A stretch of 64,000 nt of DNA, taken from Chloroflexota bacterium (GTDB lineage: Bacteria > Chloroflexota > UBA11872). Below, in pieces: positions 26,334 through 50,594 of this stretch. A program made the translations under genes and the position numbers. The notes under the pieces were generated by a model. The model ran no database searches. It was not told where the DNA came from and was given only the letters and a program-made list of their open reading frames with translations. The DNA lies in the NCBI GenBank assembly GCA_028874315.1, contig JAPPKM010000071.1, forward strand, positions 226-64,225, given 5' to 3'. Position 1 is the first letter of the stretch; every line of letters begins with the position of its first letter.

Positions 26334-26407
26334 GCCCCCGTAGCTCAGTGGACCAGAGCGACGGCCTTCTAAGCCGTGGGTCGCAGGTTCGAATCCTGCC
26401 GGGGGTG
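26334..26407 (+). tRNA. tRNA-Arg (anticodon TCT)
   Basis: Cloverleaf read by eye. Acceptor GCCCCCG/CGGGGGT (G1-U72 pair), D-arm GCTCAGTGGA..GAGC, anticodon stem ACGGC/GCCGT with loop CTTCTAA, T-arm GCAGG-TTCGAAT-CCTGC. CCA is not encoded. Confidence 0.85.
26366..26405 (+). repeat. attL core: tRNA-Arg 3' half (40 bp), identical to 52967..53006
   Basis: cttctaagccgtgggtcgcaggttcgaatcctgccggggg occurs at both positions. Five of the next six bases also match. Confidence 0.9.
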
Positions 26408-26609
26408 CCGCCACCTTGAGGCGCAGCCCGACCCGAACCTGTTAGCGGACGTGTCGGCCGAGGTCACCGGCCGCGCCCCCAGGGTGGATTCCATGCGAAG
26501 TGACCTACGGCCTGTATCGCGCCTCGACCCGACGGTGCCCGGACACGCACCGGACCTGCAGCGGACAGACGCTCGACCGCTCGAGCTCGCGGTCCCCATT
26601 CTCGGGCCC

Positions 26610-27569
26610 ATGCACATGGCCCAGGCGCCCCTCCCCAGCCCGCCGCTGGTCGATCTGGCGGAGTCGTACCTGCTGCATCTGCAGGCTTCGCGCCGCAGCG
26701 CCGGCACCATCGTCATGTACACGCGCATCCTGGGCCGGTTCGAGCGGTTCCTGGCCGCGTATCACGGCTCCGCGCCGAGCGCCGACGCGCTCACCCGCGA
26801 GGCCGCGCGGCGCTATCTGGTGCACCTGCAACAGCAGCCGCGCTACGTCGACATGCCGGACCGCCGCGGCGGGCGCCTGGCCCCCGCCACCCTCAACCAG
26901 CACGCGCGGGCGCTACGCGCGTTCGCCCGCTGGCTCTGGGACGAGGGCTTCACGGCCGAGCACCGGCTGGATCGGCTGCGCATGCCCAAGGTGCCGCTGA
27001 GCGACATCGAGCCGCTGACGCCGGCCGAGGTGGAACGGCTGCTGGCGGTCTTCGACCCGCGCAAGGCCTACGACCGGCGCACGGCGGCGATGGTGGGCCT
27101 GCTGGTGGACACCGGCATGCGGACGGGTGAACTCGCCGCCCTGCGCACCGCCGAAGTGAATCTCCACATCGGCGAGCTGCGCGTGGTGGGCAAGGGCGAG
27201 AAGGCGCGCGTGGTGGTGGCCGGACGGCGGGCGCTGAGCCTGCTGCGGCGCTACCTGCATCACCGCCCGCCCGGTCTGGGCCAGGCCAGCGACCGGCTGT
27301 TCGTGACGACGTCGGGCCGGGCGCTGGACCCGAACCAGATCGGGCACATCGTGCGGCGCCTGCGGCGGCGCAGCGGCATCCCGCGGCTCTACGCGCATTT
27401 GCTGCGGCACACCTTCGCGGTGCACTTCCTGCGCAACGGCGGCAACCCGCTGACGCTGCAACGGCTGCTGGGGCATGCGTCGCTCGCAACCACCAATCGC
27501 TACGTGACGCTGGCCACCGGCGACCTGGTGGCGGCCCATCGCCAGAGCAGTCCCCTCGACAATCTGTAG
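26610..27569 (+). CDS. Tyrosine recombinase / phage-type integrase
   Basis: ORF 26376..27569 starts inside the tRNA, so an internal start is more likely (ATG 26610/26616, or 26493). Catalytic blocks 'TGMRTGELAAL', 'AHLLRHTFA' and 'LLGHASLATTNRY'. Confidence 0.85.
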   Translation: MHMAQAPLPSPPLVDLAESYLLHLQASRRSAGTIVMYTRILGRFERFLAAYHGSAPSADALTREAARRYLVHLQQQPRYVDMPDRRGGRLAPATLNQHARALRAFARWLWDEGFTAEHRLDRLRMPKVPLSDIEPLTPAEVERLLAVFDPRKAYDRRTAAMVGLLVDTGMRTGELAALRTAEVNLHIGELRVVGKGEKARVVVAGRRALSLLRRYLHHRPPGLGQASDRLFVTTSGRALDPNQIGHIVRRLRRRSGIPRLYAHLLRHTFAVHFLRNGGNPLTLQRLLGHASLATTNRYVTLATGDLVAAHRQSSPLDNL

Positions 27570-28513: not shown

Positions 28514-29419
28514 GTGCACGCCCAGCGCCCCCTTACCCGCCAACACTCGGTCCTGCGGATGCTCTATCTCCATCGGTATCTTGCGGTCGACCAGATCGCC
28601 ACCCTCGTCTTTGCCACCGCCAGCCGCCGCGCCTGCCAGGCGTGCTGCACCACCCTCCATCGCAAGGGCTTCGTTCACCGCTTCGAACTCGCTCGAGGTG
28701 GCTTAGGTGGAGGTCGATCCAGTTACGTCTATGCGTTAGCCCCTGCAGGCGCCCAGGTCCTGGCCCAGGCTGACAACATCCCTGTCGTGGACATCCCCGT
28801 CGATCCCGATGCTCCCACCGCTCAGTCGGTCTTCGTCCATCACCAGCTCGCCGCCAATCGCTGTCTCGTCGCCGTCACCCGCGCTATACGGCAGCGTCCG
28901 CGTATTCGACTCTGTCAGTGGATCTCCGATCCCCACAGTCGGCTGCGCTACCGGCCCGACGGCGCCCGCTCCTGGCGCAGCGTCCATCCCGACGTGATCG
29001 CCATGCTGCGGGATGCGGACTTCGACCACTGGACCTTCCTTGAGATCGACCGCGGCACGCAGCCGCTGGCCCGCTATGTCGCGAAGATCCGCCGCTATGC
29101 GCGCTTCCAGCGCTCCAAGGCCTGGATGTCGCACTACCCGGTGTTCCCGGCCCTGCGGGTGGTGAGCGTGTCGGCGCGGCGGGCGGCAGGCATGGCCGAG
29201 TTGGCGGCGGATGTGATCGACCAGGTCGACTACGACGTGTATTGGGCTCGGCGCCCCAGCGTGTACGTGGCGGCGACTGCCGAGCCTGAACTCCTGGCCG
29301 ACCCGTTCGGCGAGATCTGGCGACCGGCTGCCGGCCCCCGCGATGCCCGCCACGCCTGGCTCCACGAGGGGCCTTCGGCTCCGGCACCGATGGAATCGGC
29401 CGGAGCCGGCGGCACCTGA
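28514..29419 (+). CDS. Replication-relaxation family protein (mobile-element associated)
   Basis: N-terminal winged-helix-like 'LTRQHSVLRMLYLHRYLAVDQIATLVF...LHRKGFVHRF' and 'YVYALAPAGAQVL' match the pattern I associate with this family. Confidence 0.55.
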   Translation: MHAQRPLTRQHSVLRMLYLHRYLAVDQIATLVFATASRRACQACCTTLHRKGFVHRFELARGGLGGGRSSYVYALAPAGAQVLAQADNIPVVDIPVDPDAPTAQSVFVHHQLAANRCLVAVTRAIRQRPRIRLCQWISDPHSRLRYRPDGARSWRSVHPDVIAMLRDADFDHWTFLEIDRGTQPLARYVAKIRRYARFQRSKAWMSHYPVFPALRVVSVSARRAAGMAELAADVIDQVDYDVYWARRPSVYVAATAEPELLADPFGEIWRPAAGPRDARHAWLHEGPSAPAPMESAGAGGT

Positions 29420-30608: not shown

Positions 30609-33600
30609 ATGGCGAAGTTTCCGACTATCGTCGAGACGTACCTGGCCGACCTGCGACGGATTCGCGCCTCCGGTGGGGCGACGGCCGAGACGTCCAGCTA
30701 CACCCCGCTGGAGATGCTCCTCGATGCGGTAGGCGCCGGGCTCAGGCCCAAGGTGTATTGCGTTGGGCAGCTCAGAGACCAGGGGGCCGGGCATCCCGAC
30801 TTTGGGCTGTACGCGGCAACGCAGGTGCAACGCGGGGGAAAGCCCAGGGGCGATCAACTGCCCGAGCATGGCGTGGTTGAGGTGAAGCCGGCGGCGGACG
30901 ATGCGTGGCTGACCGCGGAGAGCGACCAGGTGACGCGCTACTGGAGCCGCTACCGGTTGGTGCTGGTGACGAACTTCCGCGACTTCCTGCTGGTGAGCGA
31001 GGACGCGAATGGGAATCCGGCGCGGCTGGAGAGTTTTCGGATGGCGGCGGACGCGGAGGATTTCGAGCGGCAGTTGGAGAAGCCGCGGGCGTTTGCTGGG
31101 CGGGTCGGCGTGGGGCTGGGGGAGTATCTGCGGCGGGTGCTGTCGCACCGGGCGCGTCTGGTGGAACCGCGCGATTTAGCCGAACTGCTGGCCTCCCATG
31201 CGCGGGACGCGTTGGCGCGGGTAGAGGCCGCCGAAGCCGAGACGGGGGCCGGCGCCGCGCCGTTGGGGGCGGTACGGGAGGCGCTGGAAGAGGCGCTGGG
31301 CGTGCAGTTCGAGGGCGAACGGGGTGCTCGGTTCTTCAGGTCGACGCTGGTGCAAACGCTGTTCTACGGCGTCTTTTCGGCGTGGGTGTTGTGGGCACGG
31401 CAGACGCCGCCGCCGAGGGGCGCGTTCAACTGGCGAGAGGCTGTGTGGCATCTGCGCGCGCCGGTGCTGCGGGCACTGTTTCAGCAGCTCTCGGATCCGG
31501 GGCGGCTGCAACCGCTGGGTCTGGTGGAGGTACTGGACTGGACGGCTGCCACATTGAACCGCGTGGATCGGGACGCCTTCTTTGCACGGTTCAGCGAGGG
31601 GCAGGCGGTCCAGTATTTCTACGAGCCGTTCCTGCAGGCGTTCGACCCGGCGCTGCGCAAGCAATTGGGTGTCTGGTACACGCCGCCTGAGATCGTGCGC
31701 TACATGGTGGCGCGGGTGGACCAGGCGCTGAAGGACGACCTGGGCATTGCCGAGGGTCTGGCCGCCGAGAACGTCTACGTGCTGGATCCCTGCTGCGGCA
31801 CGGGCGCGTACCTGGCGGAAACGCTACGCCGAATTGCCGACAACCTGCAAGATCAAGGGCTGGGCGCGCTGACCGGAGCGCGGGTCAAGGAAGCGGCGAC
31901 CGAGCGCGTGTTCGGGTTCGAGATCATGCCGGCGCCGTTCGTGGTGGCACACCTGCAAGTCGGGCTGACCATGCAGGACTTGGACTCGCCGCTGGCGGAG
32001 GACGGAGCGGAACGGGCGGGAATCTTCCTGACCAATGCGCTCACGGGATGGGAGCCGCAGCCACAAGAGCGGCTGCCGATCCCCGAGTTTGAGGAGGAGC
32101 GCGAGCGAGCGGACGAGGTCAAGCAAGACAAGCCAATCCTCGTGGTCCTGGGCAATCCGCCGTACAACGGCTTTGCCGGCATGGCGGTGGACGAGGAACG
32201 GGAACTGTCGGATGCCTATCGCACGACTCGGCGAGTGCGGCGGCCCGAGGGCCAGGGTTTGAATGACCTCTACGTGCGGTTCTTCCGCATGGCGGAACGG
32301 CGGATCGCCGAGCAGACCGAGCAGGGCGTGGTCTGCTTCATCTCGAACTACTCGTGGCTGGACAGCCTGTCCTGTCCGGGGATGCGGGAACGGTACCTCG
32401 AGGCCTTTGACGTCATCCGTATCGACAACCTGAACGGCGACAAGTACCGAACCGGCAAGGTGGCGCCCGACGGCTCGCCCGACCCCAGTATCTTCTCAAC
32501 GCCCGACGATCCGGTTGGAATCCAGGTCGGAACGGCCATCGCCACACTGGTACGTAAGACCGACCACGCGTCCGCGCCAAACATCGAGTTCCGCAACCTG
32601 TGGGGTCAGGCCAAGCTGGAGGCCCTTACGGAAACGGCGGAGGCTGTGCCGGGGGCGCTCTACGGGACGATGGAGCCGGTGCTCCCGCTGGGGCTGCCGT
32701 TTGCGCCGCTAGCCGTCAGCCCGGAATGGTTCGACTGGCCGGCGTTGCCAGACCTGCTTCCGACGTCGTTTCCAGGAGTCAAGACCAGCCGCGACGCGTT
32801 CCTGGTCGACACCGACCTCGACCGGTTACGCGAGCGTGTCAGCGACTATTTCGACCCGGACCTAAGTCATGCGGAGATCGCGCAGCGATATCCGAGCGTG
32901 ATGCGGAGTTCGCAACGGTTCAACGCCCCCACGGTCCGAGACACGTTGCTAAGGCGAGGCGGTCCCACGGAAAGCGGCTTCGTGCGCTACGCATACCGGC
33001 CTTTCGATACCCGGTGGCTGTATTGGGAGCGCGACACGAAACTACTCGACGAGAAGCGATCCGAATACGTGCCTCACGTATTCCCAGAAAACTTGTGGCT
33101 ATCTGCCGTTCCCCGACTCAGGCAGGACGCAACCGAACCGCAAGCCACCTTCACGCCAGACTTGGCATCGCTTCACCTCATCGAATGGGGCGTCAGCATG
33201 TTTCCCGCGTGGCTTCGCGAAGAATCGTTGGGTGCCGACCTGCCGAAGTGGCGTCGACCGAACCTGTCAGCCGCTGCCCGCCGCTACCTTGAGCACTTCA
33301 ACTCGACTGTCGAGGACCTCTTCCACCACGTACTGGCTGTACTGCACGACCCTGGTTATCGGGAAGCGAACGCAGGCGCGCTGCGCATGGCGTGGCCGCG
33401 AATTCCGTTGCCGTATTGGTCCGAACTGTCAGCCCGCAGCGGCGCAGGGGAAAACGACGAGTCGGCCAAGGTTGGAGAGGCTGCCGAGTCCCTGGCTGGC
33501 TCGGTGGCTCGCGGGCGAGAATTAGCTGCGCTGCTCGATCCTGAGACGCCAGTTCCCAGCGTCACCACCGGCCAGCTTCGCCCAGAGACCGCCACGATTG

Positions 33601-34001
33601 CCGTGCCGGCCACGACACACGAGCGCAACATGTTCGGCGATGACTTTGGACTTACGGCGGGCTGGGGGCACATGGGATCCGGTCAGGCGGTGATGCCGGG
33701 GAAGGGTCGCGCCGTGGAGCGAGCTTACTCGGAATTGGAACGCTCAGCTCTGGGCGACGCCGCGGACATCATGGGCGAGACGACGTATGACATTCACCTC
33801 AATGACAACGCTTACTGGCGAAATGTGCCCACGAACGTGTGGAACTACCGTCTGGGCGGGTACCAGGTGCAGAAGAAGTGGCTGTCTTATCGAGAGCGGC
33901 AGGTTATGGGGCGGGCGCTGAGGGTGGAAGAGGTGGGGTATTTCAGTGAGATGGCAAGGCGAATTGGATCGATACTGCTCGTGACGGACTCAAGGGCCTA
34001 G
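30609..34001 (+). CDS. Type IIG (MmeI-like) fused restriction endonuclease / N6-adenine DNA methyltransferase
   Basis: 1130 aa. N-terminal PD-(D/E)xK-like 'HPDFGLY…GVVEVKP'. Gamma-class MTase motif I 'VLDPCCGTGAYL' and motif IV 'VLGNPPYNG'. Long C-terminal region containing 'YRPFDTRWLYWE'. Confidence 0.8.
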   Translation: MAKFPTIVETYLADLRRIRASGGATAETSSYTPLEMLLDAVGAGLRPKVYCVGQLRDQGAGHPDFGLYAATQVQRGGKPRGDQLPEHGVVEVKPAADDAWLTAESDQVTRYWSRYRLVLVTNFRDFLLVSEDANGNPARLESFRMAADAEDFERQLEKPRAFAGRVGVGLGEYLRRVLSHRARLVEPRDLAELLASHARDALARVEAAEAETGAGAAPLGAVREALEEALGVQFEGERGARFFRSTLVQTLFYGVFSAWVLWARQTPPPRGAFNWREAVWHLRAPVLRALFQQLSDPGRLQPLGLVEVLDWTAATLNRVDRDAFFARFSEGQAVQYFYEPFLQAFDPALRKQLGVWYTPPEIVRYMVARVDQALKDDLGIAEGLAAENVYVLDPCCGTGAYLAETLRRIADNLQDQGLGALTGARVKEAATERVFGFEIMPAPFVVAHLQVGLTMQDLDSPLAEDGAERAGIFLTNALTGWEPQPQERLPIPEFEEERERADEVKQDKPILVVLGNPPYNGFAGMAVDEERELSDAYRTTRRVRRPEGQGLNDLYVRFFRMAERRIAEQTEQGVVCFISNYSWLDSLSCPGMRERYLEAFDVIRIDNLNGDKYRTGKVAPDGSPDPSIFSTPDDPVGIQVGTAIATLVRKTDHASAPNIEFRNLWGQAKLEALTETAEAVPGALYGTMEPVLPLGLPFAPLAVSPEWFDWPALPDLLPTSFPGVKTSRDAFLVDTDLDRLRERVSDYFDPDLSHAEIAQRYPSVMRSSQRFNAPTVRDTLLRRGGPTESGFVRYAYRPFDTRWLYWERDTKLLDEKRSEYVPHVFPENLWLSAVPRLRQDATEPQATFTPDLASLHLIEWGVSMFPAWLREESLGADLPKWRRPNLSAAARRYLEHFNSTVEDLFHHVLAVLHDPGYREANAGALRMAWPRIPLPYWSELSARSGAGENDESAKVGEAAESLAGSVARGRELAALLDPETPVPSVTTGQLRPETATIAVPATTHERNMFGDDFGLTAGWGHMGSGQAVMPGKGRAVERAYSELERSALGDAADIMGETTYDIHLNDNAYWRNVPTNVWNYRLGGYQVQKKWLSYRERQVMGRALRVEEVGYFSEMARRIGSILLVTDSRA

Positions 34002-35233
34002 TGAAACGACTTCGGAGCGTGGGAAGCGTCATCCGCGAGCACGCCGAAATATCGGTAACGCTGGTTGCTTCGGTCCTTCTGATTGTCGTTATCGTAATTT
34101 GGGTGAAGTCATCCGATGACTTCACTGCAGTTCGCGACTATGGCCTGTTGATCGCCACAATAGTTGCATTCCCGCTCGCATTCTGGCGCAGCAAGGTGGC
34201 GGAGCGCCAGGCTGATGCAGCACGTCGCCAAGTTGAGGCTGCCGAACAAGGTCTACAAAGTGAGCGCTTCCGTCAGGGTACCGAGATGCTTGGCCATGAA
34301 CTAAAGTCCGTGCGTCTTGGTGGCATCTACACTCTTGATCGGCTCGCCAGAGATTTTCCGGAGGAGTATCACATTCCCGTCATGCAGACATTGTGTGCAT
34401 TCGTTCGCCATCCGCCGACAGATCCCTCGCAGACACGGCCAAGCAGTGTTGTTGCACAACCGATGGTCGAAGGAGACGAATACGACGATACTCCGCTTCA
34501 TTTGGTTGAGGATATTCACGCCGTCCTTGAAGTGATTCGACTGCGTAGCCAACAGCGATTGGACATCGAGTCAACGAACAACTTCGAATTGAATCTTAGC
34601 GGGGCAGATCTTCGTCTATCAGATCTTCGAGGCGCCAGTTTATCCGGCGACGACTTGAGTGACTCTCGACTCTCTGGCTCGCTTATGATGGACGCTGATC
34701 TCTCCGGTGCTCACCTTCAACGTGCAGACTTGACCTCACCGAACAAGAGTAGACCCAGCAAAGCGACCAAAAGTGACATTCACGAAGGACGTATTCCAGC
34801 AACGACAAGGCTCGACAATGTGGACTTGACGGGCGCGCTGGCTTTGGGTGCGAAGATGCGTGGAGTAATTCTATCCGGCTCGGACCTAAGCGGTGCGAAT
34901 CTCCCGTTTGTGACTTTGGCTGATTCACTCCTCATGCACACAAACTTTTCCGATGCACATCTATCCGACGCAAACTTGAGCGGCGCGGAGTTGCATGGTG
35001 CGAATTTTGCTGAGGCAATGTTATCGGACGCAAACCTCTCAGGGACGGACTTCTCGGGTTCATGTCTGTTTGGACACCCCGTTACACCTCAGCGTCCGGC
35101 AATTGGCCTAACTCAGAAGCAATTGGACTCAGCTCGAGCGGATCCAGCCAATCCGCCACGGCTTGATGGGGTCGTAGACGCAGACACCGGCTGTCAACTG
35201 GTCTGGAACGGCAAAGTGCTTGACGATGGATGA
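34001..35233 (+). CDS. Membrane-anchored pentapeptide-repeat protein
   Basis: The GTG start overlaps the MTase TAG by 1 nt (TAGTG). Two N-terminal hydrophobic helices. Long run of A(D/N)LSx-type pentapeptide repeats (NLSGADLRLSDLRGASLSGDDLSDSRLSG…ANLSGAELHGANFAEAMLSDANLSGTDFSG). Confidence 0.8.
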   Translation: MKRLRSVGSVIREHAEISVTLVASVLLIVVIVIWVKSSDDFTAVRDYGLLIATIVAFPLAFWRSKVAERQADAARRQVEAAEQGLQSERFRQGTEMLGHELKSVRLGGIYTLDRLARDFPEEYHIPVMQTLCAFVRHPPTDPSQTRPSSVVAQPMVEGDEYDDTPLHLVEDIHAVLEVIRLRSQQRLDIESTNNFELNLSGADLRLSDLRGASLSGDDLSDSRLSGSLMMDADLSGAHLQRADLTSPNKSRPSKATKSDIHEGRIPATTRLDNVDLTGALALGAKMRGVILSGSDLSGANLPFVTLADSLLMHTNFSDAHLSDANLSGAELHGANFAEAMLSDANLSGTDFSGSCLFGHPVTPQRPAIGLTQKQLDSARADPANPPRLDGVVDADTGCQLVWNGKVLDDG

Positions 35234-35240
35234 TAAGTAG

Positions 35241-35429
35241 GCTTGCCGCTTGTGCGGGTACCAGGTGCTGAAGAAGTGGCTGTCGTATCGGCAGCGGAAG
35301 GTGCTTGGGCAGGCTTTGAAGGTGGATGAGGTGGGGTGTTTCAGTGAGGTGGCGAGGCGCAATGGGGCGATTCTGTTGCTGCCGCACCAGACTGACTCCG
35401 GCTTGAAGCGATGCAGAGATGTCGTTTAG
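35241..35429 (+). pseudogene. Orphan 3'-end fragment of a second Type IIG MTase paralogue
   Basis: Open fragment …CGYQVLKKWLSYRQRKVLGQALKVDEVGCFSEVARRNGAILL… aligns with the end of the 30609..34001 product (GGYQVQKKWLSYRERQVMGRALRVEEVGYFSEMARRIGSILL). DNA identity is roughly 80% by eye. Confidence 0.8.
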
Positions 35430-35458
35430 GGAAAATGCGCACGGGAAAGTAAGTCCTA

Positions 35459-37021
35459 TTGCAGCCAGCGAGAGCGAGCCTTCCTGATGGCAGGAGGCGA
35501 CCGAACATCACAGTCACAGGATCTGCGCACTTTCATGACGATCGGCGATCCGGCCATGAGTGCAACACTATCGGTCGAGGGTCCGGGAGGCTTAAGTGGC
35601 CCAACCGGAGAGTCTTTGAGGAGCCGCTGACCCTGCCCTACGAAGTATTCGGCATTTTCTACCGGTGTTCCGAAATTCATGGAGCCCATACCAGTTTGGA
35701 GGAAGCCGCTGATTGTTTCGCGCAAGCGACCCAACGCTATGGTGCTGACGTACCGGTACATCCCGTTACTCAGAAGTATATTCACTGGATTGTCGCTATC
35801 GATAAGAACGGCAACAAGAGAGATTTATCGAATTCCGAATTGACGAAAGCCGGCAAGCTTTGCCTGGACTGCAAGTCATTCGCGGCCAAGGTCCCTGGAA
35901 TTACAACATTTTCGCAGCTTGCGGGAATGTATTACGAAGCGTCAAGGCTGATACCAGTGACGCACATTAGCCTGAAAGGCATGTTTGACCGCCAAGCCAA
36001 GGTTCGTCACTTCTGGACTTCAGACGCAGGCAAGGGCCAGGCGTTGGCCTTCGCACAGCAGGCAGCGTTTACCCTAGAGCTAGCACTCAAGGCATATCTG
36101 GAAGTTCTGGGGAAACTGGCGTCAACAGATGCTGCGGACGTCCGGAAATGGCGAAGGCATGAGCTCGCTGAACTCTTCAAGCTACTCACCTACGATGAGA
36201 AAGAGCAGCTGGAAGAATGGTGGCACCAGTCGGACGCTAAGAGAACACACTTTCACCGGAGATTCCAAGACTTCCTTTCGGAGAACAACAGGCTCTACTT
36301 GAAATGGCGGTACGTCAACGACCTTGAATCCGCCGACCTGTCAATCGACATACCGATGCTGTTGAGCGCTGCTGACTTTCTGTTGTACGCCGCCCGCCAG
36401 GCATTCAGGAAAACCTCACCCACCAATCTCAAAGTCACGACGACAGTGTATCCGCACTCCGACAGGGACAACAGAAGCTCGGCTCCTCGCTACGCACCGA
36501 CACTAGTAGAGGGTCGCGTTCGCGCTGTGAACATACCCAACGGATATGACCCTTTCAGCATAGTTGAGCTTGTGATCGACTCTGACCACCATGACGACGA
36601 AGTGATTGCCCAGTTCTACAAGCGCAGTGTTGAGAATTACTTTGGCCTTGAAGGCAGAAAGGTCGCTTTATTCGGCAACATCAGAGAAGATCGGCCGCAT
36701 CTGTTGGCCCACCCGCGTCACCTGGACGAACTCGAGAGAGAATGTGTGTACACCGTTGAGCATTGCACGTTGAAGGGATCGATCCATGACGTTAGGACTG
36801 TCCATTCCGCACATGGTAAACCTGGGAAACTAGACCTTTCTCTCTGGGACGAAACCTATTTCACCCAAGTCGAATGCTTCTTTGTGACGGACAAGGAGCG
36901 TGACCTGCTCAGGGAAGTCAAACCGGGTGATACAATTCTGATAAGTGGTTGGGTCACTGTGCTGAATGGGCGACCAGTGGTGATAGTTCGGCCTACCCAT
37001 ATCGAAAAGGTTGTCGAGTAG
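35459..37021 (+). CDS. Hypothetical protein with central HEPN-like domain and two C-terminal OB-fold-like repeats
   Basis: Rx4H motif 'RKWRRHELAELF' lies in an all-helical region (…FTLELALKAYLEVLGKL…). The C-terminus has two beta-rich units, ending '…VKPGDTILISGWVTVLNGRPVVIVRPTHIEKV'. The start is uncertain: TTG at 35459, and the first in-frame ATG is far downstream. Confidence 0.5.
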   Translation: MQPARASLPDGRRRPNITVTGSAHFHDDRRSGHECNTIGRGSGRLKWPNRRVFEEPLTLPYEVFGIFYRCSEIHGAHTSLEEAADCFAQATQRYGADVPVHPVTQKYIHWIVAIDKNGNKRDLSNSELTKAGKLCLDCKSFAAKVPGITTFSQLAGMYYEASRLIPVTHISLKGMFDRQAKVRHFWTSDAGKGQALAFAQQAAFTLELALKAYLEVLGKLASTDAADVRKWRRHELAELFKLLTYDEKEQLEEWWHQSDAKRTHFHRRFQDFLSENNRLYLKWRYVNDLESADLSIDIPMLLSAADFLLYAARQAFRKTSPTNLKVTTTVYPHSDRDNRSSAPRYAPTLVEGRVRAVNIPNGYDPFSIVELVIDSDHHDDEVIAQFYKRSVENYFGLEGRKVALFGNIREDRPHLLAHPRHLDELERECVYTVEHCTLKGSIHDVRTVHSAHGKPGKLDLSLWDETYFTQVECFFVTDKERDLLREVKPGDTILISGWVTVLNGRPVVIVRPTHIEKVVE

Positions 37022-37107
37022 GACGATGCTTGGAAGAGTTTTCCTCAGGAAATGCTCGGTTTCTTGATGACCGAATTGGCCTTTACGGAGAGAAAGTAGG
37101 ACAATTG

Positions 37108-38295
37108 ATGGCGCGTGAGCTTACGCTCTTCGACGACATTGTACGTACGGATCACCGGCACTCGAAGCGAGCGAGATCCGCCTTTGATTTTCTGAATACG
37201 TCGGCTTGGTCTGCCTGCCACAACATGCGCGACACGCTTGAGCAGTGGTTCGAGCAGTACCCGGTGATCTCCAAGAACGATCTTCGCTCACGCTTCCGGA
37301 AACGCGACGCTAACCACGAGTCCGCTTTCTTCGAGCTCTTTCTGCACGAAGTCTTCCGCCGTTTGGAACTCTCTCCCGAAGTGCATCCCGAATCGCCAAG
37401 TAGTCGCGGACGGCCTGATTTCGCAATCACGAGCGGTAGCGGCAGTCTGTACTACGTTGAAGCCAATGTTGTCGGGCTCAGGGGATTCATGGCCAAGGAC
37501 CCGCTCGAGGATGAGGTATTTGATGCCATAGACGATTTGGCTGTCGAGCGACCGACGAGAATCGCGCTGGATGCTCGAACTTGTGGGACTCTGTCCCAAT
37601 CTCCGCCAGTTCGTCGAATCAAGGCGAAGGTTCGGCAGTGGGTTGATCGGATCGACGAGGAATACAGAGTCCCGGGCAGGATTGAGGCGGAGCCAAGCAT
37701 CAGAATCTCTCACGACGAATGGAGTCTTAACTTAGCGGCATTTCATCGATTCGATCATGACTCGAAGAGGATGATCCATCTAGGTCCGAGTAAGGGCGGG
37801 GTGTTGAATGACGACGTTGCTCTACGCAAGAACGTACTAGCGAAAGCAAAGCAGCACCGAGACCTCGATCGGCCCCTGATTGTGGCAATGAACACACAGA
37901 GCGGCTTCCAGGATCGTGACGACGAGCTCTCGGCGCTGTTCGGCCAGGAAGCGGTGTCATGGCGCGAAGACGCACACGGCAACGTCGTCACGCTTCCGTA
38001 CGTAACGCGTCAGCCCGACGCAGTGTGGCGCAATCGCGGGGGGAGACGATATAGCCGGCTGCACGGTGTGCTGTTCTTTCGCGGCGCCCGGCCGTCGACC
38101 GCGCACAGCGTCACTTCCCATCTATATGTCAACCCATACATCCAGGCTGATGTTCCGCCTGAACTTCTGCAGCTGGGGAGCGCCCGTGTCCGGAGCAGAG
38201 AGATGCGATGGGAAGCGGGGATGCCTCTCGGCGACCTGCTGGACCTTCCTGAGGACTGGCCCGGTGAACGAACCCCAGGCTTCTCCGCTGGCTGA
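37108..38295 (+). CDS. Hypothetical protein, possible PD-(D/E)xK-like nuclease fold
   Basis: ORF 36949..38295. The ATG at 37108 is preceded by GAGAGAAAGTAGG. 'FFELFLHEVFRRL…GRPDFAIT…LYYVEANVV' resembles a restriction-endonuclease core, but no clear catalytic Lys is visible. Confidence 0.45.
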   Translation: MARELTLFDDIVRTDHRHSKRARSAFDFLNTSAWSACHNMRDTLEQWFEQYPVISKNDLRSRFRKRDANHESAFFELFLHEVFRRLELSPEVHPESPSSRGRPDFAITSGSGSLYYVEANVVGLRGFMAKDPLEDEVFDAIDDLAVERPTRIALDARTCGTLSQSPPVRRIKAKVRQWVDRIDEEYRVPGRIEAEPSIRISHDEWSLNLAAFHRFDHDSKRMIHLGPSKGGVLNDDVALRKNVLAKAKQHRDLDRPLIVAMNTQSGFQDRDDELSALFGQEAVSWREDAHGNVVTLPYVTRQPDAVWRNRGGRRYSRLHGVLFFRGARPSTAHSVTSHLYVNPYIQADVPPELLQLGSARVRSREMRWEAGMPLGDLLDLPEDWPGERTPGFSAG

Positions 38296-38649
38296 GGGTC
38301 TGACTTCCCACCCGTGCGCCGAGCTGAGCGCCATACTTAGGTCTCTCTTCTCTTTAGTCGGACTTGTGCTCCTGCGCACGTCCGGGCTCGTCGTCTGTCG
38401 CAATGACGGCGTCGCCTCGCTCAGGGAGTTCGTAGTGCTTGGCGTCGGCATTCCACGCCGTCGCGGATGTCTCGTAGGCCAGCACTTAAGAACCCGAGGA
38501 TCGTCCTCACCGACTTCGTAGTCAGGCCTGGACACGTTCGCGCGCCATGGGGAACTGCTTGCCCCGCGGAAAGTCGGGCGGGTCTGAGATCTCCCGTCGC
38601 CCGAACGGATGCGGACGGCGCGGGACTGGCCTGCCACAAGCGGATCAGG

Positions 38650-38790
38650 ATGGTCCTAACTGTGCGTAGTCTGGGCAATTGCCAGATGGTGACGAGGTGG
38701 CTGTATTACCGGGAACGGACGGTCTTCAGCCGGGAATCGAAGGTGGCAGAGGTAGGGCGTTTGAGTTAGGTGGCACGGAGGTTTTGGGGC
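38650..38790 (+). pseudogene. Second, more decayed remnant of a Type IIG MTase 3' end
   Basis: …VRSLGNCQMVTRWLYYRERTVFSRESKVAEVGRLS* aligns with …YRLGGYQVQKKWLSYRERQVMGRALRVEEVGYFS. DNA identity is roughly 70% by eye. The left limit is approximate. Confidence 0.6.
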
Positions 38791-39251
38791 GAACCCGGTG
38801 GTCAGGAAGTAGCACTCTCTGTCAAATGACAGGATCGCACACTCCGGGGAGTTCGGGCGTTTCGGACAAGTGCTGCGAGGAGGAGTCACCATCCGTGTCC
38901 TATGAGTACATGCGTGCCTCTCCTGATTTGGCGAACTGCGGAAGGCTGCCGAAATCGGCGCGGTCGCCGGCCATCAGTCGTCAGTGGTTGAAGAGCAGTT
39001 GGATGCCATGGGAGCCACAGGCGCAGTGAAACGAGCTAAGGCGACGACTATTGGTCCGCAGCCCCCAGGAGGCGAGCGAATCCAGCACATCGCGCGCTTG
39101 CGGCTCACTTGGACATTGGAGTATCTTCCCGCAGCATTTTGGTGCGCGAGAATTAGCGTCGCCTTGGGTGGTGCCGCTCGGAAGGGCTTCAGATTCGCGT
39201 TCGCGATCCACAGCTTGCAGCCGAATCTCAAAGATCGGCATCAAACGTCGA

Positions 39252-39785
39252 GTGACGTTCACAGACGCTGAAGAATCCCTGGGCGACTTCCTCGAACGCT
39301 ACCCACCGCGCCCGTATCGCCGCAGAGGCGCAGCCAACTATCCCGCAGCCGAACTGGAGGCCGTCACGGATGCTGAAGGTCTCCTGTACCTGAACGAGGT
39401 ACCGGCGCAGATGCCACAGGGGAGCCCACGGCGATCCCACGAGGATGACGGCCAGAACTGTCATATATGGGTAATCGACGAGCGCGGACGACCGTGCATA
39501 TCGCAGGCACCGCTGCCGCGACTAGGCCCTGAGAAACTGCATCACACAAATCTGACGGGAGGAGGCGAGGCGTCTATCGGCGGCGAAATCTGGTTCGGTT
39601 CGCTGCCCTTCGTATACCTGTCCGGCTCATCAGGTCGATATCCGCCTACGGGACGAGATCACCTAGAGTGCGCCGAACGCCTCTTTCGTGCTGTAGGCTT
39701 TGATGTCCACTCGCTGGGCTGGGACTCAGAGACCGATCAGCCTCTGCGGGTCTGGCTCGGAAAGTCATCGGCGGTGGGGGAATGA
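39252..39785 (+). CDS. Hypothetical protein (candidate toxin/effector partner of the Xre-COG2856 gene)
   Basis: ORF 39051..39785. Only the distal ~178 codons look protein-like (…HIWVIDERGRPCIS…HHTNLTGGGEASIGGEIWF…LSGSSGRYPP…). The GTG 39252 start is tentative. The stop overlaps the next ATG (ATGA). Confidence 0.45.
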   Translation: MTFTDAEESLGDFLERYPPRPYRRRGAANYPAAELEAVTDAEGLLYLNEVPAQMPQGSPRRSHEDDGQNCHIWVIDERGRPCISQAPLPRLGPEKLHHTNLTGGGEASIGGEIWFGSLPFVYLSGSSGRYPPTGRDHLECAERLFRAVGFDVHSLGWDSETDQPLRVWLGKSSAVGE

Positions 39786-41140
39786 GCGAAGCCACCACGG
39801 CGCTATATGTGCGGGGCAAGTACCAACTCGCCCGGTACGAGCCAGGAAGTTCGGCGACGGGCCGACGCCTCACAGAGCACGAGGTTCTTGAAGCATACGG
39901 CCGCGATGTACTTGCTGACATTGATGACCGTTTGTCCGCCGTGCTGCTGGCGCGCGCCGGCGCAATCGAACATGCGATTCGCGAACAGCGCGATGCGTTG
40001 GGCATGACACGCTCTGAACTCGCACGCGCCGCGAATGTCGATCATGAAGTCATTGATCTAGCAGAGACTGACGCCGAGCAGCTCGAGCTGAGGGAGCTTG
40101 AGCACCTGGCGTTCGTACTTGGTCTTGATCCCGCCAAGCTGAGCATTGACGAGCGCGCGGGTTCGGATCCTGATCTGGGCGTCAGGCTGCGCGTCCTGGA
40201 GGTCGAGCGCGTCGCGACTCCAACCAATGCTCGGCTAAATGCCCGGACCGTGTTGCGATTCTCAGAAGCCGCTTCGATTATCAGATCGCATCTTCTTCTT
40301 CAGCATTGGCTGGGAAAGCAAAACGAAGCGGAGGGATTTGAGACTTCATCCAACTACGGCCCTCCGGCCTGGCGAGCGGGATATGCGCTTGCCAGAAAAG
40401 CACGAGAACTCTTGGGTATTGGCATCGAACCCATTGACTCGATGCGGGAGCTCGTCGAAGGCCGTCTTGGCATTCCGATCATTCAGGTTGCACTCCAACC
40501 GGAGATTGCGGGCGCCACAATCTCGTCGCGGAGTCAGCGAGGCATCGTCCTCAACATTGCCGGACGGTACCAGAACGTGTGGATCCGCCGTACGACGCTC
40601 GCGCATGAACTGGCACATGTCCTCTTTGATCCCGAGGAGCAACTCGAAAGTGTCCGCGTCGACAGCTATGAGCAGATTGTGCGCGACGCCGAGCACGACA
40701 GCCAGTTGCCGGACTACGTGGAGCAACGAGCCAATGCCTTTGCAGTCGAATTTCTGGCCCCGAGGGAAGCTGTGAAGCAGTTCGTTCCGAGCCCCGCCCA
40801 AGTGAGCGCCGCAAGTGTTGCGCAGGTCATGTCGGCATTCGGCGTCGGAAAGGCCGCGGCTCGCTTTCACGTGGGGAATGCGTGGTGGGGACAGGCCGAG
40901 CTTCCTGATGAATCCACAATTCAGGCGTCACCCAGAGGAGACCAGAAGGCGGCCGAGGATTACACGTTGGACTTTTTCCGGCCGAGAGCGACGCCCGAGC
41001 AGCGGCGGGGACGCTTCGCTTTCCTCGTGGGAGAGGCCGTTGACACAGGACTAATCACGCGCGATACGGCAGCTCAATACCTTGCTTGCTCCGAAGACGA
41101 TCTGAATGCTGCAGTGCCGTTTTTGCTCGGTAGAGCATAG
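39782..41140 (+). CDS. Xre-type HTH fused to ImmA/IrrE (COG2856, M78-like) zinc metallopeptidase domain
   Basis: HTH 'LGMTRSELARAANVDHEVIDLAE'. HExxH 'LAHELAHVLFD' followed by 'EQRANAFAVEFLAP'. Confidence 0.8.
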   Translation: MSEATTALYVRGKYQLARYEPGSSATGRRLTEHEVLEAYGRDVLADIDDRLSAVLLARAGAIEHAIREQRDALGMTRSELARAANVDHEVIDLAETDAEQLELRELEHLAFVLGLDPAKLSIDERAGSDPDLGVRLRVLEVERVATPTNARLNARTVLRFSEAASIIRSHLLLQHWLGKQNEAEGFETSSNYGPPAWRAGYALARKARELLGIGIEPIDSMRELVEGRLGIPIIQVALQPEIAGATISSRSQRGIVLNIAGRYQNVWIRRTTLAHELAHVLFDPEEQLESVRVDSYEQIVRDAEHDSQLPDYVEQRANAFAVEFLAPREAVKQFVPSPAQVSAASVAQVMSAFGVGKAAARFHVGNAWWGQAELPDESTIQASPRGDQKAAEDYTLDFFRPRATPEQRRGRFAFLVGEAVDTGLITRDTAAQYLACSEDDLNAAVPFLLGRA

Positions 41141-41189
41141 TCGTTTGGGAGAGTACTTCGTCCTTGGTGAGTGGGTACGAACCTAGACG

Positions 41190-42230
41190 ATGACAATACC
41201 GAGAAACATTCCATGGCGGTCGACCGGAACCACTTTGGGCGCCGGAGGTCAAGGTCAGGTTCATCTCGTTGTTGACGAAAGACAGCCGGAGAGCGAAGAG
41301 TACGCTCTCAAGGTACTACGGAACACTTCTTCACAACAGGCGAGGGAGCGCTTCCGCCGGGAAATAGAGGTCGTGAAGAGATTGAATTCGAACTTTGTGG
41401 TCAAGGTGATTGATCACTCTCAAGAAGAGGACGAATTTCAGTATTTTGTCATGGAGTATTTTAGCGGGGCAAGAACTCTATCGAGCATCATTTTCGCAGA
41501 AGGCAGTCCATTTTATCGCGACGTTAGCAGATGCCTTGACATGTTTGAGCAGATACTGGCAGGCATTAGGGCGTGCGAAGCGTCTCGTCCGCAAGTTGTT
41601 CACCGCGACATCAAGCCGGACAATATCCTTGTCCTTCAAGACGGTTCCATTCGACTAATCGACTTTGGAGTCTGCCAGATCGATGATGGGGAAATGATGA
41701 CCCTTGTGGATGAGAACGTCGGAGCTCGAAATTACACTTCCCCGGAGTGTGAAGCTGGAAGTGACGATTTCATAGGAATCCACTCCGATATCTACTCTGC
41801 TGCCAAGATTCTATGGGCTGCCATTACCTCAAGGCAGGCATTTGCTCGGGAGGACCCAGTCTTTACAAATAGGTCGATGGAAGCGATGCTCCCTCAGATT
41901 CCGGAGACTTGGCACCTTACCCATATCTTTGAAAAGACGATTCGTCGTAACCCCGCAGACAGATTCCAGAGTGTCGGTGAGGCCCTTGAGCTGGTTCGAC
42001 ACGTGCGACATTTGGTTCAGTCAGGGATTCCACCACTCAAAATACTAAGTCGCTATTGTCCTTCGTGCGGATGGCCGGCTGTGAGCGAGTTTCCCCTGTC
42101 ACACGAAGTATTCGGCAATCCCAACCCGCCTGGCGTGGCATCTTTGATGTGCAGCTTGTGTGGGTTTGGCTTTGTTAGGAATATGGAGGTATGGCGCGAA
42201 AGCCTGGAGCGTCGTGAATCGCTCAGCTAG
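41190..42230 (+). CDS. Ser/Thr protein kinase with C-terminal CxxC…CxxC zinc-ribbon-like tail
   Basis: 'LGAGGQGQV', 'YALKVL', 'VVHRDIKPDNILV', 'LIDFGVC', 'YTSPE'. Tail 'CPSCGWP…CSLCGF'. Confidence 0.8.
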   Translation: MTIPRNIPWRSTGTTLGAGGQGQVHLVVDERQPESEEYALKVLRNTSSQQARERFRREIEVVKRLNSNFVVKVIDHSQEEDEFQYFVMEYFSGARTLSSIIFAEGSPFYRDVSRCLDMFEQILAGIRACEASRPQVVHRDIKPDNILVLQDGSIRLIDFGVCQIDDGEMMTLVDENVGARNYTSPECEAGSDDFIGIHSDIYSAAKILWAAITSRQAFAREDPVFTNRSMEAMLPQIPETWHLTHIFEKTIRRNPADRFQSVGEALELVRHVRHLVQSGIPPLKILSRYCPSCGWPAVSEFPLSHEVFGNPNPPGVASLMCSLCGFGFVRNMEVWRESLERRESLS

Positions 42231-42638
42231 AGTGGCTAGGAAGAAGAGAGTTGGATCAGATACGAGGGCCGGAGGATTTAGCAGTCCGAGATATTGACGC
42301 GTAGAGAAGATAACTCTCCTTAATATGCGGAGTGAACTGGATCCATCAGATGGAGGACCCAGGCTTAGCAGGAGGGAGATGAGTGGTCATCCCAATAGAC
42401 TTCGTGACCAGTGTGAACCTCCATGACCCTCGGCTGATAGCCGTGACGCGTCGCGGCAACTTCCACACAGGCGAGGCGGACTATGGTTCCGGGAGTTGAC
42501 GCGGGCTGTGGAGTCTCCGCTGAGCGGCGTCAACAAACCACTCCAACCATCGATCAATAAAGGCTTGCTCTTCACCTTGATCGATTGGTCGGAGCGGCCG
42601 CGCATTCTGATACTTTCCGCTGGCCGCTTGGTGGGGAT

Positions 42639-43916
42639 TCAACGCAAATGGACAGATTGAAGGTCTTTGAAAAGTGACCAAAACGACTTGTCGTACCAAC
42701 GAAAATGCCCTTTATTTTGGGGATCACAATACCAAAGGGAATGTGACCTACCTTCATATCCGCTTGGATTTCTCGGCATTCTGACCGATATCTGTGCATA
42801 GGCGACTGTATCAATGCTCCTCCGAGAAGAGTTTCCGGGACTATCATTACTCGCTAGCTTCGGCCGGGCAACGCTCAACTGACCGCTAGCCAGGGACCAA
42901 TTGAGTGTTCCACCTTTATCCGATAATTTAGTGTTCGGAGCGTTTTGAAGTAACTGATCGTGGAGTAAGTCAATGATTGGTGCTAGTGAGCGTTGAGCTA
43001 CATCATACAACTCTAAGCGGTGTTCTGCTTCGATTCGGGCAGCTGTACGTCTTCGGGACTCTTCGGCTTCTTGCTGAACGACTTGTGCGTTGATTTCCTG
43101 GAGCAAGGACCCGACACCGGAAGTAGGCTGTACACTCCGCGGCCATCGCGCCAGCAAGTTTCGCGGTCGCGGTCGAGCTTCAGGGGATTTGTACAGACAT
43201 TCGTCAATCAACGAGCGAAGTTGCGTTGGAATCCCGGGAATTGAATCTGGGAGTTCGTTCAGATGCTGACGACGATAATCGTGCTCGGCCGGTCCGACGA
43301 ATGGACGTCGTCCTGCAAGTAGCTCATAGGCAACGACGCCTAGCGCGTACACATCCGTTGAACTACTGGCTCGATCTCCATTCCACTGCTCCGGTGCCGC
43401 ATAGGCAGACGTCTTCGCATACTTCTTCGTATCAGGGGCTGTCGTTGCATCGGCGTACCTTGATATTCCGAAGTCTGCAAGGCACCAGCGCCCGTCATGA
43501 AACAGCACATTTTCTGGCTTGATGTCCCGATGGACAACTCGGTCCTCAATCTCCACCAGTGCGGTTGTGATATCGACGAGAATCGTGACTGCCTCAACCG
43601 GCTCGATCCGGCCATCGGACGCGATGAGATGGTCGCGGAGTGATTGCTCCGCTTCAGGCATTACAAGGAGCCAGCAGTCCGAAGTCTCGCCCTTATCTAG
43701 GATTGGTATGACGTTTGGGACCCCGTCGAGATCTTCAAAGAGTAGCTCCCGTTCTGCGCCGGGTGCCTTTGGGATAAACTTCACGACACCTGCCATGTCT
43801 TCGTCAGAACGAGCGGCGTAAACGAGTCCAAAGCCGCCGGAGCCTATCTGATGCTCGATGCGCCAGTTACGGTCTAAGCAGACTTCCTCTCCGATGTAGT
43901 CTGAAACTGGGTGCAT
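42639..43916 (-). CDS. Ser/Thr protein kinase with unknown C-terminal domain (possibly frameshifted near its end)
   Basis: 'IGSGGFGLVY', 'VVHRDIKPENVLF', 'LADFGISR', 'YAAPE'. A protein-like ORF in another frame continues from about 42700 to 42481. Confidence 0.8.
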   Translation of the reverse strand: MHPVSDYIGEEVCLDRNWRIEHQIGSGGFGLVYAARSDEDMAGVVKFIPKAPGAERELLFEDLDGVPNVIPILDKGETSDCWLLVMPEAEQSLRDHLIASDGRIEPVEAVTILVDITTALVEIEDRVVHRDIKPENVLFHDGRWCLADFGISRYADATTAPDTKKYAKTSAYAAPEQWNGDRASSSTDVYALGVVAYELLAGRRPFVGPAEHDYRRQHLNELPDSIPGIPTQLRSLIDECLYKSPEARPRPRNLLARWPRSVQPTSGVGSLLQEINAQVVQQEAEESRRRTAARIEAEHRLELYDVAQRSLAPIIDLLHDQLLQNAPNTKLSDKGGTLNWSLASGQLSVARPKLASNDSPGNSSRRSIDTVAYAQISVRMPRNPSGYEGRSHSLWYCDPQNKGHFRWYDKSFWSLFKDLQSVHLR

Positions 43917-44554
43917 CGACTAGCGTCCCTCGGATGCCCAAACGTTAGTGATCTTTGCTTCCGATGATATCAGCCATGGGCAATTTGATCTCTGGGATAC
44001 CTCGATCTGGCTGCTGGCTCCAGGCTTGGGCCTGCCTGGCGACCAGGACTCTTGGAGGCGTATCTCGGTCATGGTGCAACACTGTACGGGCGCTGAGTCC
44101 CGATGGCGTTCGGCTGGCGGACCTGCACGCGACTGAGCGCGCCGTCGCTGGTCTGCACAAGGATGCCAGCTTCGTTTTCTGCCGGTGGTCGTCGAAGAGG
44201 TCGACAACTGGCCCGGAGTTATCGACATCGGTCGATGCCACGAGAATCGCCAGTCAGAATACTCCGAGGCCAAGCTGCAATAGCCTGTCCTGGGCAATAT
44301 GAGCGCGACTCGTGGCAACTCGCCTTGCTAAGTCCATTGAGACTGTCCTCGGTTCCACCAGTCGTCCAAAACGCCACGCTGTGCACGTCCGGCCGAAGAG
44401 GGCCAAACTTCGCTGCGTACAACGTCGTCGAACCTCACTCATGGCCCCGTAGACAGGGTGTCGCCAGCTCCTGTCATCTCTATGTGCACCACTCGGGCTC
44501 TGTAGGCGAGCGTGGACTCAATGCGACTGTGTCCTGGGCGCCAGTTGAGCAGGA

Positions 44555-45198
44555 GTACGGAATCCTGCCTTCCACCCGGATCCTTGGCTCGGCACCCTGA
44601 GGTTCGACCGGCCGTGCACCACGAGGAGTCCGATGTCCCAGGCTGCGGTCTCGCCGATCTCCGGGCGGCCCCACGCGCGTCGGACGGCCCGCCGCGGTCG
44701 GCGGTCGTTCGCCACCTACTACTGCTGGGTCGATGACGCTCTGCGGCATCGTGCCGACGGGTATCGGCTGCTCGACTCCCCTTTGGTCGGCCTTCCTGGC
44801 GTCCAACGGTTGGCGCGTCGGCGCTTTCGCCGCAGCGCCTTCGCCGATGTACATGCGACACGAGCGCTGCTCCAGCAGGCGACTGAGCAGGCCTCGGCGA
44901 TTCTGACCCCACGGCAGGCCCTGGCGTTGCAGCTCTTCTGCGACGGCCAGCCGATGGCCGCCATCGCAGCGCGGTTGGGCCTGCGCAGCCGCCAGCATCT
45001 CTGGGCCGCCTACCGACGGCCGGCCGTGGAGGCGGTGACCCGCGAGTTTCTGGCACTGGCGCAGGCGGATTTTTCCCCGAATTAGGGTAGAATTTCGGTG
45101 CCATTGTTCCTGGAAGGGGGCAACGGCCTGCAAATCGGCCTTGAAGCCGTAACAGGTTTGGCACGGCTTGAGGGCGGGGCTTCTGACCGCGGTACTTC
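44555..45198 (+). repeat. Module copy 1: leader + small HTH gene + conserved ~115-nt tail
   Basis: Aligns along its whole length with 47369..48016 and 52325..52966. Confidence 0.85.
44633..45085 (+). CDS. Small HTH protein (sigma-70 region-4/LuxR-like), island copy 1
   Basis: SD GAGGAG lies upstream. 'LTPRQALALQLFCDGQPMAAIAARLGLRSRQHLW' is an HTH-like block. Paralogue of 47447..47899. Confidence 0.65.
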   Translation: MSQAAVSPISGRPHARRTARRGRRSFATYYCWVDDALRHRADGYRLLDSPLVGLPGVQRLARRRFRRSAFADVHATRALLQQATEQASAILTPRQALALQLFCDGQPMAAIAARLGLRSRQHLWAAYRRPAVEAVTREFLALAQADFSPN

Positions 45199-45278
45199 GC
45201 AGATCACCGACAGGTCTGGCATTAACCGACATCACGTTACTCGACCTTTGGCGGCCACTCGTCACCGACTGCAATGCT

Positions 45279-50593: not shown

Positions 50594-50594
50594 T

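Follow-up and report, generated by a model that had tools for sequence, protein, structure and literature searches.

The window analysed here is a stretch of 64,000 nucleotides (nt) from a Chloroflexota bacterium (contig JAPPKM010000071.1 of assembly GCA_028874315.1), and the subject is a predicted Type IIG restriction-modification gene within it whose 3′ end occurs three times in a row, each time followed by different sequence. A first-pass annotation of the window had described three diverged direct copies of this gene end that bracket successive gene cassettes, with a pentapeptide-repeat gene between copies 1 and 2 and two further open reading frames (ORFs) between copies 2 and 3; both the copies and the gene order hold, with slightly adjusted limits. 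The array is enclosed by a 26.6-kb integrative island (26334-53012) at a tRNA-Arg(TCT) gene, and islands with the same backbone are present at other loci (L002, L005, L082, L085 and L170). The features of the array are as follows.

30609 to 34001, plus strand: intact Type IIG restriction-modification gene, 1130 amino acids (aa) (Pfam Type_ISP_C 1e-41, N6_Mtase and Eco57I; PADLOC REase_MTase_IIG 9e-86)
33846 to 33998, plus strand: copy 1, the functional 3′ end (RLGGYQVQKKWLSYRE... to the stop codon), from tblastn, DNA alignment and nhmmer
34001 to 35233, plus strand: pentapeptide-repeat gene, native partner of copy 1 (Pfam Pentapeptide 7e-29); its start overlaps the restriction-gene stop codon
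35243 to 35390, plus strand: copy 2, an orphan 3′ end (tblastn E 5e-17; nhmmer E 1e-25)
35459 to 37021, plus strand: p520, an ORF with 72-81% aa identity to the gene directly after the intact restriction genes of L003 and L073
36949 to 38295, plus strand: p448, an ORF 76% identical in amino acids to its L003 neighbour
38296 to 38666, no strand: non-coding spacer of ~370 nt that moves with p520-p448 (common to L003; the alignment has a 55-nt indel)
38667 to 38806, plus strand: copy 3, an older orphan 3′ end with an in-frame stop (tblastn E 4e-6; nhmmer E 6e-10)

The product of 30609-34001 is a predicted Type IIG restriction enzyme-methyltransferase: one polypeptide holds nuclease, gamma-class N6-adenine methylase and specificity (Type_ISP_C) domains. 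The PADLOC model REase_MTase_IIG matches it at 9e-86 and 2e-70 across residues 10-940, and a PD..ExK-like motif can be read at the N-terminus (HPDFG...VVEVKP). The gene has thousands of homologues (>8000). Protein identity is 68-85% across groups, which include at least eight bacterial phyla (loci L002-L081 of the genome collection; the hosts include metagenome-assembled genomes of Chloroflexota, Latescibacterota, Binatia, Acidobacteriota, Gemmatimonadota, and Alpha- and Gammaproteobacteria), and single genomes often hold several copies, which together argue for very wide horizontal spread. The viral contig collection contained no relatives. The ratio of nonsynonymous to synonymous substitution rates (dN/dS) against the homologue at L003 is 0.15, and the final ~48 residues (VW.Y.LGGYQVLKKWLSYRE...ARRI) are nearly invariant among homologues.

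The two orphan ends were recovered at both the protein and the DNA level. With the last 199 aa of the gene as query and the window as target, tblastn returned, besides the gene itself, two matches on the same strand, 35247-35399 (69% aa identity, E 5e-17) and 38671-38784 (50%, E 4e-6); the best remaining match had an E value of 0.05. A DNA profile made from 80 homologous 3′ ends and run with nhmmer over 34000-53100 likewise gave two fragments only: copy 2 (35254-35389, profile positions 760-895, E 1e-25) and copy 3 (38672-38804, profile positions 757-888, E 6e-10). Over 142 nt, identity to copy 1 amounts to 80% for copy 2 and 61% for copy 3. Measured against intact gene ends, which are 74-89% identical to one another, copy 2 reaches 74-83% and copy 3 60-72%, so that along the order copy 1, pentapeptide gene, copy 2, p520 and p448, copy 3 the decay grows with distance from the intact gene; this agrees with the earlier suggestion that old ends had been displaced downstream of the functional one. 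The frame of copy 2 is open to 35429 (59 codons), the stop codon present in L003 being gone, and it is altered at residues that are invariant in the 80 homologues (G to C in LGGYQ, E to Q in YRE, R to Q and I to N). To judge by these comparisons, copies 2 and 3 are decaying relics. Copy 2 starts ~10 nt past the pentapeptide stop codon, and the spacer ahead of copy 3 was rejected as a decayed restriction gene (z ~0 versus 15 for copy 3) and, by comparison, as a decayed pentapeptide gene. The start of copy 2 right after the pentapeptide stop and the lack of relationship between spacer and restriction gene indicate that the orphan boundaries are real.

Partner genes and gene ends at other loci

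The gene that follows the functional end is not peculiar to this window. A pentapeptide-repeat homologue is the commonest immediate downstream neighbour of the intact restriction gene (16 of 78 loci, in several phyla); at those loci it starts no more than ~30 nt from the restriction stop codon, often overlapping it, and L082, L084 and L085 likewise have the gene (73-80% nt identity). These occurrences make it a regular partner of the enzyme that belongs with copy 1, rather than a foreign insert. The protein has a hydrophobic N-terminal stretch, visible on reading the sequence, that is a putative membrane anchor, and a functional link to the Type IIG enzyme, as regulator or effector, seems likely from this recurrent neighbourhood.

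The two ORFs behind copy 2 have a comparable history elsewhere. The p520 DNA matches the same position in L167 and L170 at 82-85%. Its true start is probably near 35636, giving a protein of ~461 aa, because L003 carries a stop codon in the part corresponding to 35459-35635, which is therefore probably non-coding; in p448, conservation begins at the ATG at 37108, so 36949-37107 is probably non-coding and the protein probably has ~395 aa. The first-pass annotation had labelled p520 “HEPN/OB” and p448 “nuclease-like”. For p520, a C-terminal OB-fold persists as a sub-threshold Pfam match (23.6 bits versus a cut-off of 27) and domain scans gave no match to HEPN; for p448, the function label traces to one weak PADLOC match (PD-T7-5, E 4e-4). 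Computed against L003 from the conserved starts, excluding the non-coding annotated 5′ parts, dN/dS is 0.28 for p520 and 0.37 for p448, which indicates that this displaced cargo is still under purifying selection.

The comparison with L003 is the most informative. Window positions 35243-38718 are collinear, without interruption, with L003 13228-16654 (79.6% identity over 3482 nt), and the L003 stretch consists of the last 130 nt of an intact 1124-codon restriction gene, the intergenic region, p520, p448, the ~370-nt spacer and the first ~50 nt of an orphan of the copy 3 type, orthologous to the first ~50 nt of copy 3 itself. L003 thus represents a state one step earlier than the window. Intact genes have p520-p448 directly behind them in L003, L073, L167 and L170/L171 (L170 being of the same island family as the window), and copy 2 is collinear with the intact gene ends of L003, L073, L167 and L170, downstream intergenic stretch included. 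Read from this collinearity, copy 2 is the relic of an allele whose partners were p520-p448. Other loci show the same correspondence: L082 has, in order, an intact gene, the pentapeptide gene, an orphan and an AAA_15-DUF4276 pair, and this pair stands directly after intact genes in L004, L013, L054 and L168; the orphans of L033 and L020 both precede the same 308-aa gene family. Since partner sets behind orphans match those behind intact genes, the natural units are a 3′ end plus the genes after it. The earlier view of the cassettes as foreign insertions is not supported by this comparison: the pentapeptide gene, p520-p448 and AAA_15-DUF4276 are all normal partners of intact alleles elsewhere.

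What follows the restriction gene is extremely variable. Within 4 kb downstream of it, the 78 loci hold 235 ORF clusters, mostly singletons and mostly without annotation, so the same downstream genes are by no means always present. Orphan ends are found in ~8-10 of 81 genome loci. The DNA profile detected downstream 3′ fragments in L011, L020, L033, L078 and L081, a weaker one in L009, and internal gene scraps in L024 and L049; the L003 orphan was detected by blastn only, and the sister islands L082 and L085 have one orphan apiece. A metagenome scan with the C-terminal peptide yielded many short 3′ relics in soil, peat and lake samples, a further intact gene with a downstream orphan (L098), the deletion derivative L141 described below, and 5′ or middle scraps of the gene. 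In all, an intact gene followed by same-strand 5′-truncated copies is seen in the window, L003, L011, L020, L033, L078, L081, L082, L085 and L098. The DNA between intact gene and orphan holds a pentapeptide gene in L078, one low-G+C ORF in L081, a higBA-like pair (read from sequence) in L033, and vsr-like, GmrSD_N and C5-methylase-like genes in L011. Together with the variety of downstream clusters, the orphans of genomes, sister islands and metagenomes bear out the proposal of the first-pass annotation that the 3′ end of this methyltransferase gene is a recurrent entry point for defence-type genes.

Several side observations concern the same gene family. The L085 orphan end (10979-11103) lies immediately upstream of cas3-cse1-cse2, and by its position this CRISPR-Cas module may be another partner of the family. 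L019 (10001-20891) and L062 (2689-13300) each carry three complete head-to-tail Type IIG paralogues that are 85-92% identical and diverge mainly at residues ~600-900, the presumed specificity region; these triplets look like multi-specificity arrays. In L049 (8214-8336) and L064 (10001-10123) an intact gene is preceded by a relic of the 5′ end (residues 3-43), and in L141 (4351-4782) the N-terminal ~50 residues are fused directly to the C-terminal ~75, an internal-deletion derivative; scars thus arise at both ends of the gene. Alignment to the restriction gene is broken by inserts of ~210 nt in L034 (13123-13337) and ~430 nt in L054 (12817-13246), which could be small mobile elements or extra-variable segments.

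How the array may have formed

The explanation we favour, with a probability of roughly 0.6, is that the copies record serial “end displacement” by recombination anchored in the conserved 3′ end of a horizontally mobile Type IIG gene. It is preferred because the copies are solid, the orphans are joined to their former partners, an earlier state is preserved in L003, the boundaries vary between loci and there is no recombinase. The array is accordingly better read, from the comparison of loci, as stacked “gene end plus partner” modules produced by recombination between alleles. In outline, the restriction gene would always carry a variable set of partners immediately after its stop codon; recombination between alleles would be anchored in the highly conserved last ~150 nt; a new module, consisting of the gene (or the gene end) and its partners, would be placed ahead of the resident module; and the resident 3′ end would survive as a 5′-truncated pseudogene still joined to its intact old partners. 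The current module would then be copy 1 with the pentapeptide gene, the previous one copy 2 with p520-p448, and copy 3 would be an older relic. The recombination step itself is inferred from sequence comparison. As to its enzymology, general homologous recombination would be the favoured agent: it could proceed, as has been suggested for rhs tips, by one crossover involving a circular intermediate, or else a homologous crossover on the left side could be combined with illegitimate joining on the right side.

The junctions fit a process of this kind in several respects. Across loci the 5′ limits of the orphans range over profile positions 538-829 (those listed are 538, 551, 616, 646, 757, 760, 770 and 789) and the 3′ limit is always the gene end; relics in metagenomes begin at about residues 950-1075. 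Module borders in related islands fall within the 3′-end repeat, and in the window homology to modules of the L003, L170 and L167 type begins at 35243-35256. The window and L082 share the pentapeptide gene and an identical junction between pentapeptide stop and orphan, yet the L082 orphan is only 51-60% identical to intact ends versus 74-83% for copy 2, which suggests that a crossover with an intact allele, the source of p520-p448, has renewed copy 2. As the first-pass annotation had already remarked, no recombinase is encoded in the cassettes: scans against Pfam, PADLOC and NCBIfam found none in the window cassette ORFs, none was found between intact gene and orphan in L011, L033, L078, L081 and L082, and none across at least five cassettes overall. 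The restriction gene with variable partners also occurs in unrelated contexts, one of them beside a large serine recombinase, and variable-partner loci without the window-type island integrase include L003, L084, L167 and L168.

Four observations weigh against serial end displacement. In L085 no orphan separates the pentapeptide gene from the p244 and M78 genes that directly follow it; a module border need not, then, be a 3′-end repeat. Many metagenome 3′ relics stand alone, with no intact gene within 6 kb, which means that plain gene decay also yields such fragments. Copies 2 and 3 and the L085 orphan, each preceded by different cargo, start within ~5-15 nt of one point, the 5′ edge of the best-conserved block of ~30 nt, which is nearly invariant among alleles; such clustering within the window's island family is not predicted by purely homology-driven or illegitimate joins and leaves some room for a site-preferring process. 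Finally, sliding-window identity against 13 close homologues showed the gene to be mosaic throughout, with no clean switch at 33846, where copy 1 begins. G+C content at third codon positions was also tried as a breakpoint test at 33846 and proved uninformative: the drop comes earlier (~32860) and is family-wide (mean difference 0.06; window 0.12).

The strongest competitor, which we consider possible but unlikely, is that whole islands or gene-plus-partner modules accumulated in tandem, through repeated integrase insertion at the same tRNA-Arg site or through tandem duplication, and that later deletions left the last ~140 nt of the downstream gene bodies, the orphans being deletion scars. The arrays of three complete, 85-92% identical paralogues in L019 and L062 show the gene in tandem; the island sits at a tRNA attachment site; a 645-nt right-end unit with a helix-turn-helix (HTH) gene occurs three times, each copy ending at the start of the right attachment site (attR), pointing to a pile-up of several related islands; and 5′ fragments, internal-deletion derivatives and stand-alone 3′ relics of the gene are common. 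Deletions keep order, however, so that gene ends and HTH units should be interleaved, whereas the window has three ends and then three HTH units. There are no attachment-site remnants between modules, two or three independent deletions would be needed with ends a few nt apart and just past an intact upstream gene, and L003 has the same junction between p448 spacer and orphan without the island backbone.

Strict site-specific insertion is more doubtful still. Cassettes with a replacement end would enter at a fixed site, the start of the conserved LGGYQVLKKWLSYRE block, by the action of a recombinase in trans (the island integrase or an unrecognised enzyme), much as in an integron. The orphans of the window and sister islands do start at profile positions 757, 760/761 and ~770 despite different preceding cargo, this point borders the almost invariant ~30-nt block, and a tyrosine integrase is encoded 3 kb upstream of the restriction gene. 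The starts of copies 2 and 3 are nevertheless ~5 nt apart and that of L085 is ambiguous by ~15 nt, while elsewhere orphans start at 538-646 and at 789. Short conserved junction motifs, which the first-pass annotation had suggested looking for, did not materialise: at 34001, 35240, 35400, 38295, 38664 and 38805 the 7-9-mers in common are no more than chance would give (an 8-mer is shared by 20% of random window pairs), no inverted repeats were found at or near the window junctions, and no sequence like the integrase's tRNA attachment site was found at the inner junctions. With orphan starts spread over 538-829, no shared motif and no likeness to the tRNA site, the earlier comparison with integrase-type elements that insert at one fixed site is not supported for the inner cassettes; no cassette encodes a recombinase, and the variable-partner gene is also found in contexts without the island integrase (L003, L084, L167 and L168). 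A bolder form of the idea, to which we give slightly less credence, is that the ~30-nt block that opens the last helix and hardly varies (GGGTACCAGGTGCTGAAGAAGTGGCTGTC) is a true attachment site for trans-acting capture of defence modules that lack a recombinase; if so, it would be an integron-like platform with its “attI” inside a restriction gene, shared by bacteria of many phyla.

That the fragments were kept because they serve the downstream cargo, whether as promoters, as signals for translational coupling or as small proteins, is very improbable: copy 2 does retain its open 59-codon frame and sits 70-240 nt upstream of p520, like the intact gene end in L003, and all family-specific orphans keep about the same ~140 nt, but a promoter and terminator scan of 33600-39200 gave nothing exceeding shuffled expectation, nothing in the orphans resembles a promoter or terminator or matches Rfam, copy 3 contains a stop codon, the orthologous L082 orphan is badly decayed, invariant residues are mutated in copy 2, and L085 has p244-M78 without any upstream orphan.

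The surrounding tRNA-Arg island

The remaining features of the island are these.

26334 to 26409, plus strand: tRNA-Arg(TCT) gene (ARAGORN, Rfam), whose 3′ 46 nt are the left attachment site of the island
26376 to 27569, plus strand: tyrosine integrase of the island (Pfam Phage_integrase E 4e-34)
28514 to 29419, plus strand: replication-relaxation protein, part of the island backbone (Pfam Replic_Relax E 4e-33)
39051 to 41140, plus strand: p244 gene and HTH/Peptidase_M78 gene (Pfam Peptidase_M78 and HTH; 73% nt identity to L085 8405-10446)
52967 to 53012, plus strand: right attachment site (attR), a 46-nt repeat of the tRNA-Arg 3′ end, 97.8% identical to 26366-26411

An integrase adjoins the tRNA gene and the tRNA 3′ end is directly repeated at the opposite border, which makes the island as a whole an ordinary tRNA-targeting element. 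The integrase is 80-93% identical in the sister islands L002 and L005; its true start is probably further downstream, because the ORF as annotated overlaps the tRNA gene. The Replic_Relax gene is kept in L002, L005, L082, L085 and L170, and an Rfam scan of the island matched the tRNA alone. From 34001 on, G+C content is patchy, falling from ~65% to 50-55%.

Downstream of the array, the p244-M78 pair is common to the window and the sister island L085. The HTH/Peptidase_M78 gene, which has RmrA- and CapP-like matches, lies just upstream of two convergent Ser/Thr protein kinase genes (41190-42230, plus strand, and 42639-43916, minus strand) matching the PADLOC models PD-T4-6 and mad6 (E 1e-42 to 1e-47). 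The copies of the 645-nt unit, each with a 150-aa HTH-like gene, are at 44555-45198, 47369-48016 and 52325-52974 and are 82-86% identical in nucleotides; every copy stops exactly at the attR start, and minus-strand low-G+C cargo separates them. The same unit forms the right end of the sister islands L002, L005 and L082 and is found in L004 too, and the three copies may preserve another record of accretion, at the island's opposite end. An ORF at 48997-49620 (minus strand) resembles, on reading its sequence, a truncated insertion sequence (IS) transposase; Pfam and NCBIfam gave no match to it, and an IS110-family transposase lies at the equivalent position in L082 and L170.

Related systems and significance

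The closest parallel is with the orphan arrays of rhs and cdi toxin genes (PMC2935791, PMC3150448). There too an intact gene is followed by a same-strand string of 5′-truncated fragments, each fragment keeps a conserved piece of variable length and its own cognate downstream gene, newer modules adjoin the intact gene while older ones decay further downstream, orthologous orphans are common to different genomes, and homologous recombination has been proposed in the absence of a recombinase. In the rhs “C-terminal displacement” model, homologous recombination via circular intermediates moves the former tip downstream and leaves core fragments of varying length (PMC2935791). The differences are also clear. 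What varies in rhs and cdi is the toxin tip at the C-terminal end of the protein itself, together with an immunity gene; here the C-terminal ~48 aa are conserved and form the anchor, and it is the separate ORFs downstream that differ. Nor does the host gene here encode a secreted toxin: its product is a restriction-modification enzyme, and it is carried on integrative islands. By analogy, then, the inner array would work like an rhs/cdi orphan array, but because its variable part is downstream genes and its protein tip is conserved, it is not a member of that family.

Elements that target the 3′ ends of genes and supply a replacement end are well known among tRNA islands and the integrative and conjugative elements (ICEs) found in guaA, rpsI and similar genes, and they can form tandem arrays, as in tycheposons. 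As here, the acquired DNA lies between direct repeats of a gene 3′ end, the old end persists downstream and arrays can grow; the whole 26.6-kb island is such an element at tRNA-Arg. The inner cassettes differ in that they have no integrase, the repeats are 61-80% identical with no exact core, and the insertion point varies across loci. Defence cassette arrays in integrons (bioRxiv 10.1101/2024.07.02.601686) share the promoter-proximal stacking of small defence cassettes without recombinases, a repeated element between cassettes and an integrase gene nearby. No attC-like inverted repeats were found here, however, and the repeated element consists of coding sequence, the integrase close by belongs to the tRNA island, and the units include multi-gene modules. 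The hotspots of P2/P4 and of the Pseudomonas and E. coli core genomes (PMC9122126, PMC13586616, PMC10250203) resemble the present case in their very rapid turnover of defence genes beside a conserved anchor gene and in their small intergenic pseudogene remnants, which are read as recombination scars; but there systems are mostly swapped, whereas here older modules stay intact behind the new one, and the anchor is itself a defence gene with a duplicated 3′ end. No account of a restriction-modification gene with displaced 3′ ends, nor of a Type IIG enzyme paired with pentapeptide proteins, turned up in a literature search; the conserved pairing of the enzyme with a putative membrane pentapeptide-repeat protein is worth testing.

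If serial end displacement is correct, a restriction-modification gene exchanged among at least eight phyla would be a docking point at which defence and accessory genes are added without loss of the old ones. It would also leave a readable fossil record of defence turnover, in which the orphans date the layers, and would provide a search rule for uncharacterised defence genes, namely to take the genes found behind a stop codon or orphan end in this Type IIG family. More broadly, the “displacement array” logic of polymorphic toxins such as rhs and cdi would be extended to immune genes.

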